In this document: piece by piece, positions 49,952 to 50,175 of the stretch
Position numbering within the stretch: position 1 is the stretch's first letter
How the letters are laid out: every line of letters begins with the position of its first letter
Assembly (NCBI RefSeq): GCF_003334815.1
Contig: NZ_QOWO01000018.1
Direction: 5' to 3' (one strand)
Source: Escherichia coli
GTDB taxonomy: Bacteria; Pseudomonadota; Gammaproteobacteria; Enterobacterales; Enterobacteriaceae
DNA length: 64,000 nucleotides
Notes under the pieces: generated by a model
The model's database searches: none
What the model saw: only the letters and a program-made list of their open reading frames with translations
What the model was told of the DNA's origin: nothing
Made by a program: the position numbers and the translations under genes

Positions 49952-50175
49952 CGTTCGGTGCCTGATGCGACGCTGGCGCGTCTTATCAGGCCTACGAGTC
50001 CGCGCATATTTTTATGTTTGCGCCCGTTTGTAGGCCGGATAAGGCGTTTACGCCGCATCCGGCGTTCGGTGCACGGTGCCTGATGCGACGCTGTCGCGTC
50101 TTATCAGGCCTACGAGTTCGCACATATTTTTATGTTTGTGCCCGTATGTACGCCGCATCCGGCGTCCGGCACCCG
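49952..50175. repeat. Tandemly duplicated REP-containing unit (two about 110-bp copies)
   Basis: Unit cgttcggtgcctgatgcgacgctggcgcgtcttatcaggcctacgagtccgcgcatatttttatgtttgcgcccgt... repeated with a few substitutions and an internal deletion in copy 2. Confidence 0.75.

Follow-up and report, generated by a model that had tools for sequence, protein, structure and literature searches.

The spacer between lfgJ and lfgK in the Flag-2 locus of the window (the whole stretch of 64,000 nucleotides of Escherichia coli DNA that was analysed) holds an old tandem array of 118-bp BIME units, in which the number of full units before a truncated terminal unit varies: there is one in the window, two in most close relatives and five in a cryptic Escherichia species. 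The account of the locus that we consider likely as a whole is that of a variable-number array in which changes in unit number are driven by misalignment, which has contracted in the window and whose hairpins would play a role at the 3' end of a message. The two genes are co-directional, and the array lies within the 303 nt that separate them. The spacer was also compared with that of strain FORC_081, in which a 451-nt match around it is 99.8% identical to the window.

The repeat search detected a direct repeat of 92 nt (49956-50047 and 50074-50165; 90% identity without gaps, spacing 118) and a tail repeat of 29 nt (50049-50077 and 50149-50177; 86%, spacing 100), and the shift in spacing from 118 to 100 indicates an 18-nt deletion in copy 2. 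When the two copies, 49960-50077 (118 nt) and 50078-50177 (100 nt), were aligned by MAFFT, they differed by nine substitutions over 100 aligned columns. A single gap of 18 nt (GTAGGCCGGATAAGGCGT or a placement equivalent to it) takes out the 5' arm of the second (y) REP. Because REPs are repeated everywhere in E. coli, the decisive evidence for duplication is the linker: its 23-nt core, CGCGCATATTTTTATGTTTGCGC, was found at exactly two sites in the 64-kb window, 50001 and 50119 (0 and 2 mismatches), against none expected from 100 shuffles. As this non-REP sequence is duplicated too, the repeat is a true duplication and not a pair of unrelated REPs that adjoin each other.

The first-pass annotation of the window had described a tandem duplication of a REP-containing unit at this place, with a few substitutions and a short internal deletion in the second copy. 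Its description was borne out by the direct repeat, the MAFFT alignment and the duplicated linker core, and the self-alignment of the spacer that it proposed as a check gave the nine substitutions and the 18 missing nucleotides. Its counter-possibility, two unrelated REP types, fails on the presence of the linker core in both copies. The unit size of about 110 bp that it gave was wrong, the units being 118 and 100 nt long. The array was not reported by Tandem Repeats Finder with default scoring, and is for this reason demonstrated here by repeat search and alignment.

The features of the junction are listed in Table 1. The array contains three full REPs and one half REP, each full element being an imperfect GC-rich palindrome of 20-40 nt with a terminal GTAG or CTAC. 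The general form of the z2 REP in the units is GCCTGATGCGACGCTGNCGCGTCTTATCAGGC + CTAC, in iREP orientation.

Table 1. Positions in the window of the features at the lfgJ-lfgK junction, and of rayT
Feature	Position	Strand	Basis
rayT, 165-aa REP-associated tyrosine transposase	23617..24114	+	context only
lfgJ, 99-aa rod-binding protein	49644..49943	+	ORF list; RefSeq annotation of FORC_081
BIME unit 1, complete, 118 nt	49960..50077	+	repeat search, alignment
Unit 1 z2-type REP, iREP orientation, GCCTGATGCGACGCTGGCGCGTCTTATCAGGC + CTAC	49960..49995	+	regex census; inverted repeat; REP types of PMC3333891
IS621 target ATCAGGCCTAC in unit 1 z2 REP	49985..49995	+	target per PMC11208160
Unit 1 head-to-head linker, 34 nt, GAGTCCGCGCATATTTTTATGTTTGCGCCCGTTT, AT-rich core 50001-50023	49996..50029	+	core search, linker comparison
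Unit 1 GTAG + y-type REP GCCGGATAAGGCGTTTACGCCGCATCCGGC	50030..50063	+	regex census; inverted repeat
Unit 1 tail-to-tail linker, 14 nt, GTTCGGTGCACGGT	50064..50077	+	alignment
y - tail linker - z2 module over unit 1/unit 2 junction	50033..50110	+	Rfam naRNA4 (RF02564), 83.9 bits
BIME unit 2, 100 nt, 18 nt short	50078..50177	+	repeat search, regex, alignment
Unit 2 z2 REP, including IS621 target at 50103-50113	50078..50113	+	regex census
Unit 2 linker	50114..50147	+	core search, alignment
Unit 2 y REP, 3' arm alone, followed by tail linker 50164-50177	50150..50163	+	alignment
Unique lfgK leader	50178..50246	+	common to every allele examined
lfgK, 458-aa FlgK-like hook-associated protein	50247..51623	+	ORF list; RefSeq annotation of FORC_081

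In BIME-1 elements, a z1 and a y REP flank a long linker, L, in which an IHF site is frequent, and the element is present once; BIME-2 elements repeat z2 and y REPs in tandem and have a short linker, S (PMC3333891). In the Bachellier classification, as far as it is given by Ton-Hoang et al. 2012 (PMC3333891), atypical BIMEs are multicopy tandem elements that mix motifs from the BIME-1 and BIME-2 classes and whose linker and copy number change from strain to strain. Judged by its sequence, the lfgJ-lfgK array is an atypical BIME, composed of z2 and y REPs in tandem with a long linker other than the IHF-binding L: it is a chimera, it is multicopy, and its linker and copy number vary between strains. 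It differs from other atypical BIMEs in that its linker variant was found in Flag-2 only in the genomes checked. The array is an ordinary atypical BIME, and it behaves in ways already known. No description of the linker variant was found, and the Flag-2 comparative paper lacks the terms 'repetitive extragenic', 'palindrom' and 'intergenic' altogether; the long-linker variant and its restriction to Flag-2 appear to be undescribed so far.

With BIME-2 arrays such as REP325 (yjdM-yjdN; the source of naRNA1-6) the array shares the alternating orientation of z2 and y, the head-to-tail iteration (two copies here and up to six elsewhere at the junction) and the copy-number variation between strains (PMC3333891), and its y - tail linker - z2 module passes the naRNA4 gathering score. 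In place of the short S linker, however, it has a 34-nt linker with an AT-rich core, half of the y REP is missing from its terminal unit, and its period is 118 bp in the window versus 97 bp in short-linker alleles of the same junction.

BIME-1 elements (z1 - L - y with an IHF site, also called RIP or RIB) resemble the array in their inverted REP pair and in the length of the linker, about 34 nt; the window itself has a canonical example at 55873-55970. The array differs from them in that the partner of y is z2, with a longer stem, and in that the copies are in tandem. It is very improbable, in our estimate, that the array is a BIME-1/RIP-like site at which the AT-rich long linker binds IHF or a Flag-2 regulator. 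The linker has the length of L, shares GCA-N10-TTTGC with the canonical L at 55902-55950 and has a nearly palindromic core (CATATTTTTATG), but its best match to the IHF consensus WATCAANNNNTTR has three mismatches against one in the canonical L, and Rfam ES036, which matches the canonical L at 55907-55949 with 44.6 bits, gave no match to the 34-nt linker at E up to 1. In addition, CATA is replaced by CCTG in several long-linker variants. The linker was therefore rejected as a canonical L or IHF site; the shared motif and length are a weak hint that it may be distantly related to L. The ES036 (CssrF) match itself is the L linker of the BIME-1 downstream of lafA, and the ES036 family appears to be the BIME L linker motif.

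The naRNA4 (RF02564) model, which derives from the y-l-z2 units of the six-unit array REP325 (PMC4550694), matches the module over the unit 1/unit 2 junction (+ strand) well above its gathering score of 59.5. This score is what favours the idea that the module acts as a naRNA4-type nucleoid-associated RNA/DNA element, binding HU and bridging REP cruciforms; a naRNA4 proper is an expressed RNA of roughly 77 nt that binds HU and condenses DNA. Yet the model is in effect one of the BIME-2 tail-to-tail module, and it also matches four other ordinary BIMEs in the window; moreover, single-unit alleles at the junction lack the module, and such a role is improbable. Because ordinary BIMEs are matched too, the match stands for a BIME-2-type module and not for a proven small RNA, and in annotation it should be named a 'BIME-2-type module' and not be taken as evidence of a functional small RNA.

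The junction was searched for in 5426 complete E. coli genomes with the unique flanks only as query. The result showed that it is present in 1276 of them, with spans that imply many spacer lengths, and the E. coli alleles sampled hold one to four units. Single-unit alleles have either a 13-nt linker, GAGTCGCCCGTAT (L002 and L004-L007), or the long linker (L016). Two long units are found in the window and in L001 and L022 (FORC_081 and the YA-1 group), and three in L010, L011, L020, L021 and L023 (300709, ECCTRSRTH03, SMS-3-5, 702/18 and WL297). L017 (VG48B2) has three long units of which the middle one has lost 14 nt of its core, L019 and L003 have three or four short-linker units with a period of 97 bp, and L024, of a cryptic Escherichia species, has six long units. 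In the comparison of strains that the earlier annotation had called for, Flag-2 BIME units were found to vary from one E. coli lineage to another. In the middle unit of VG48B2, the 14-nt deletion strips most of the AT-rich core and shortens the linker from 34 to 20 nt. This 20-nt linker falls between the long linker and those of 13 nt, which probably arose from the 34-nt linker by deletion.

Among the matches listed, 44 genomes have flanks at least 99.6% identical to those of the window; three units are present in 39 of these, two in four and the VG48B2 form in one. Across 24 kb, FORC_081 and C1 match the window at 100.0% identity, and among the matches listed that are 99.9% identical to the window (rows H263-H299), 30 of 37 have spans longer by exactly 118 bp.

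A scan for the linker core with one genome per species (100,044 species) returned one other species, Escherichia sp. MOD1-EC7003, a cryptic one. Its lfgJ-lfgK spacer contains five full 118-bp units followed by a terminal unit with the identical 18-nt deletion, and the truncated terminal unit is present in every multi-unit long-linker E. coli allele examined (for example L010, L020 and L023; also L024). Being common to MOD1-EC7003 and the E. coli multi-unit alleles, the long linker, the array and the truncated last copy predate the divergence of these lineages. The deletion in the second copy, which could be taken for decay of a fresh duplicate, is instead an old feature of the terminal unit.

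The markers within the units bear on the direction of change. In the three-unit allele, the z2 loop has G in unit 1 and A in unit 2, and the tail linker has C in unit 1 and T in unit 2. Unit 1 of the window carries G and T, and is a chimera of units 1 and 2 of the three-unit allele; this combination marks it as a one-step recombinant, the product expected of a single misaligned exchange between those two units. To go the other way, from the window form to the three-unit form, takes a duplication of unit 1 plus two substitutions. That route also yields the three-unit allele, and the two-unit spacer recurs without any base changed on a second haplotype, which differs from the window at 8 + 8 sites in its coding flanks, so that it is not a very recent singleton. 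On balance, contraction from three to two units in the haplotype group of the window is favoured, with its direction unproven. The two-unit form of the window would then most likely be the three-unit allele minus one 118-bp unit, and copy number would change by misaligned homologous pairing of units, through unequal exchange or replication slippage.

In YA-1 (L022), compared with the window over 49674-50470, the spacer and its edges (49945-50275) are identical; lfgJ and lfgK each differ at eight sites, and one further difference lies immediately behind the lfgJ stop, at 49944. The pattern suggests that a short recombination patch may have moved the BIME array between haplotypes. Units 1 and 2 are more alike within a lineage than between lineages (L010 versus L020), a resemblance that would be in keeping with concerted evolution, or else with duplications that arose independently from an ancestor with two units.

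The first-pass annotation had placed the duplication within an ongoing proliferation of REPs in Flag-2, citing at least ten REP/BIME sites and a rayT gene nearby. The number of sites was a fair estimate: the exact half-site regex, which undercounts degenerate REPs, found 15 strict REPs at about 10 sites in the 64-kb window. With about 600 REPs per genome (PMC3333891), taken over 4.6 Mb, the density in the window is about 2.5 to 3 times the genome mean. The rayT gene is likewise present, with flanking REPs at about 23441-23518 and 24127-24330 (REPtron at about 23441-24330), but it lies 26 kb from the array, whose REPs are thus not those immediately flanking rayT. In both of the other genomes examined it occupies the same place, with yafL on one side and the first Flag-2 gene on the other, and nothing seen here ties it to the duplication.

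In vitro, TnpA-REP (RayT) has been shown to cut BIME strands and join them again, and a model for the amplification of BIMEs was proposed (PMC3333891). This activity, the presence of rayT in the window, the REP density and the occurrence of the long-linker unit at different Flag-2 junctions in different lineages are what could be expected if the tandem duplication were recent and part of RayT-driven REP/BIME amplification in Flag-2. We consider this unlikely, since the array and its truncated last unit also occur in a separate Escherichia species, among arrays of this type that of the window has the lowest number of units, with a unit 1 that is a one-step deletion recombinant, and in most of the closest genomes listed a 24-kb segment with other BIMEs differs in length by one 118-bp unit only; as rayT has the same position next to yafL in the two other genomes examined, its presence is not specific to the duplication. 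Ongoing proliferation is not supported for this pair, given six units, the terminal deletion included, in the cryptic species, three units in 39 of the 44 closest genomes listed and, in the window, the smallest array of its type seen, with unit 1 markers as expected from unit loss. The site evidence leans to shrinkage of an old array rather than to proliferation, and homologous misalignment between 118-bp units is sufficient without rayT, although on sequence RayT-catalysed cleavage and rejoining would look like change based on RecA or slippage.

A 44-nt linker query matched 640 of the 5426 genomes, at one to eight places each. Wherever these places were located in a genome, they lay without exception inside Flag-2, at three junctions that are 5 to 11 kb apart. 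The count of three places in 300709 equals that of its lfgJ-lfgK units, and the count of two in YA-1 likewise equals that of its units. In ST131 (L015), the z2 - 34-nt linker - y unit occurs once at lfgD-lfgE on the + strand (26981) and as two tandem units at lafA-lafB on the - strand (37879 and 37997); the lfgJ-lfgK spacer of ST131 has the short linker. At lfgD-lfgE and lafA-lafB of the window, the long-linker unit is absent and only BIME-1-type elements were found (44730-44810 and 55873-55970).

The near-identical doublets found in different strains at three junctions of a single island, in either orientation, resemble the REPINs mobilised by RAYTs (Bertels and Rainey), with which the unit shares the inverted REP doublet with a spacer and the presence of a rayT gene in the genome. 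The unit differs from REPINs in being a member of a tandem array and not a dispersed single element, and gene conversion between nearby BIMEs explains the pattern too, so that REPIN-like doublet movement or gene conversion could each account for it. As a speculation to which we give a rather low chance, the z2 - 34-nt linker - y doublet may be a REPIN-like unit private to Flag-2 that has copied itself in both orientations among lfgD-lfgE, lfgJ-lfgK and lafA-lafB near rayT. If this is true, its presence and absence in strains would amount to a record, left in nature, of BIMEs moved over short range by RayT in E. coli, which has so far been shown in vitro only.

The RNA of the spacer was predicted to fold with -128.5 kcal/mol (z-score -4.09), each REP and each linker forming its own hairpin. 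A pattern scan of the array found no intrinsic terminator and no sigma-70 promoter pattern. The lfgK leader contains a sigma-28-like motif, TAAG-N15-GCCGCTTT, at 50188-50214, and a similar one, TAAG-N14-GTCGTTTTT, was observed upstream of lafA, within 54701-54960. These two examples may represent a putative consensus for promoters of LafS, a sigma factor of the sigma-28 type. If the leader motif is a LafS promoter, the lfgB-J transcription unit has its 3' end marked by the array. Where the array ends, a sigma-54-like GGCAC-N5-TTAC was discarded as a promoter candidate, as it lacks the GC of the -12 element and resembles the BIME tail linker (GTTCGGTGCACGGT versus GTCCGGCACCCGGT).

REPs at the 3' ends of transcription units affect mRNA decay. 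In the account that we prefer, the array would be cotranscribed with lfgJ, its stable hairpins would mark the 3' end of the lfgB-J message and the putative separate promoter of lfgK would sit downstream of it; by analogy with other REPs, the hairpins would block 3'-to-5' exonucleases and may partly attenuate read-through. This role is proposed on the basis of established REP biology and of the REP roles listed in PMC3333891. The suggestion of the first-pass annotation that REPs at gene junctions may shape the mRNA stability of flagellar sub-operons is plausible on general REP biology as well. Inspection of the lfgJ stop codon (TGA, 49941-49943) showed that the first REP begins 16 nt downstream of it. 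REPs within 15 nt of a stop codon reportedly cause translational down-regulation, a rule attributed to Liang, Rudd and Deutscher in 2015; the first REP lies just outside this distance.

The array could also be a neutral, selfish or hitch-hiking repeat without a role in the cell, whose copy number drifts and whose linker is filler. We hold this to be the less probable reading, which stays credible because natural alleles span one to six units and include IS621 insertions; scars of IS621 and linkers of 13, 20 or 34 nt add to this variety. A seemingly compensatory change in the linker stem (GCGCA...TGCGC in copy 1 versus GCACA...TGTGC in copy 2) was also unsupported over 13 distinct long linkers from eight loci, in which G-C, A-T, G.T and A/C mismatches all occur. 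Against neutrality, none of the 13 long-linker variants departs from the 34-nt length or from the TTTTTATG core, and no REP-less allele was found among the E. coli alleles examined with flanks about 95-97% identical, save those disrupted by IS621. The documented effects of 3'-end REPs on mRNA decay also speak against it.

BIME arrays of E. coli and their copy-number variation have been described for decades, and the locus matters little alone. It offers a natural series of alleles (one, two, three or six long units, one to four short ones, and linker deletions) in which marker substitutions expose the products of recombination, a linker variant seemingly confined to one island and a REP target repeatedly hit by IS621. 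It is therefore a convenient test bed for the expansion, contraction and spread of BIME arrays and for the involvement of RayT.

Two observations concern the comparison of the wider locus with FORC_081. The fliI gene of FORC_081 is annotated as a pseudogene with an internal stop, unlike its counterpart in the window, a fliI-like ATPase ORF (35642-36979) that translates without internal stop; the suggestion, taken from the FORC_081 pseudogene, that Flag-2 is dead in the window strain was rejected on this ground. Two tRNA matches with equal scores lie 8 kb apart towards the start of the window (125-198 and 8128-8201); FORC_081 has tRNA-Asp annotated in this region, and the collinearity of the window and FORC_081 may fail at that end.

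Finally, ATCAGGCCTAC is a natural target of IS621 (PMC11208160), and both units of the window carry it. In L008 and L012, IS621 was found inserted exactly at this REP target, and in L012 the region from lfgE to lfgJ is gone between the lfgD-lfgE REP and the lfgJ-lfgK REP. A 71-nt remnant of the IS621 left end, ending in ATCGGGCCT, was observed in L018. In L007, the target is replaced by ATCAGTATCTAC, which looks like right-end bases of IS621 that an excision may have left behind.
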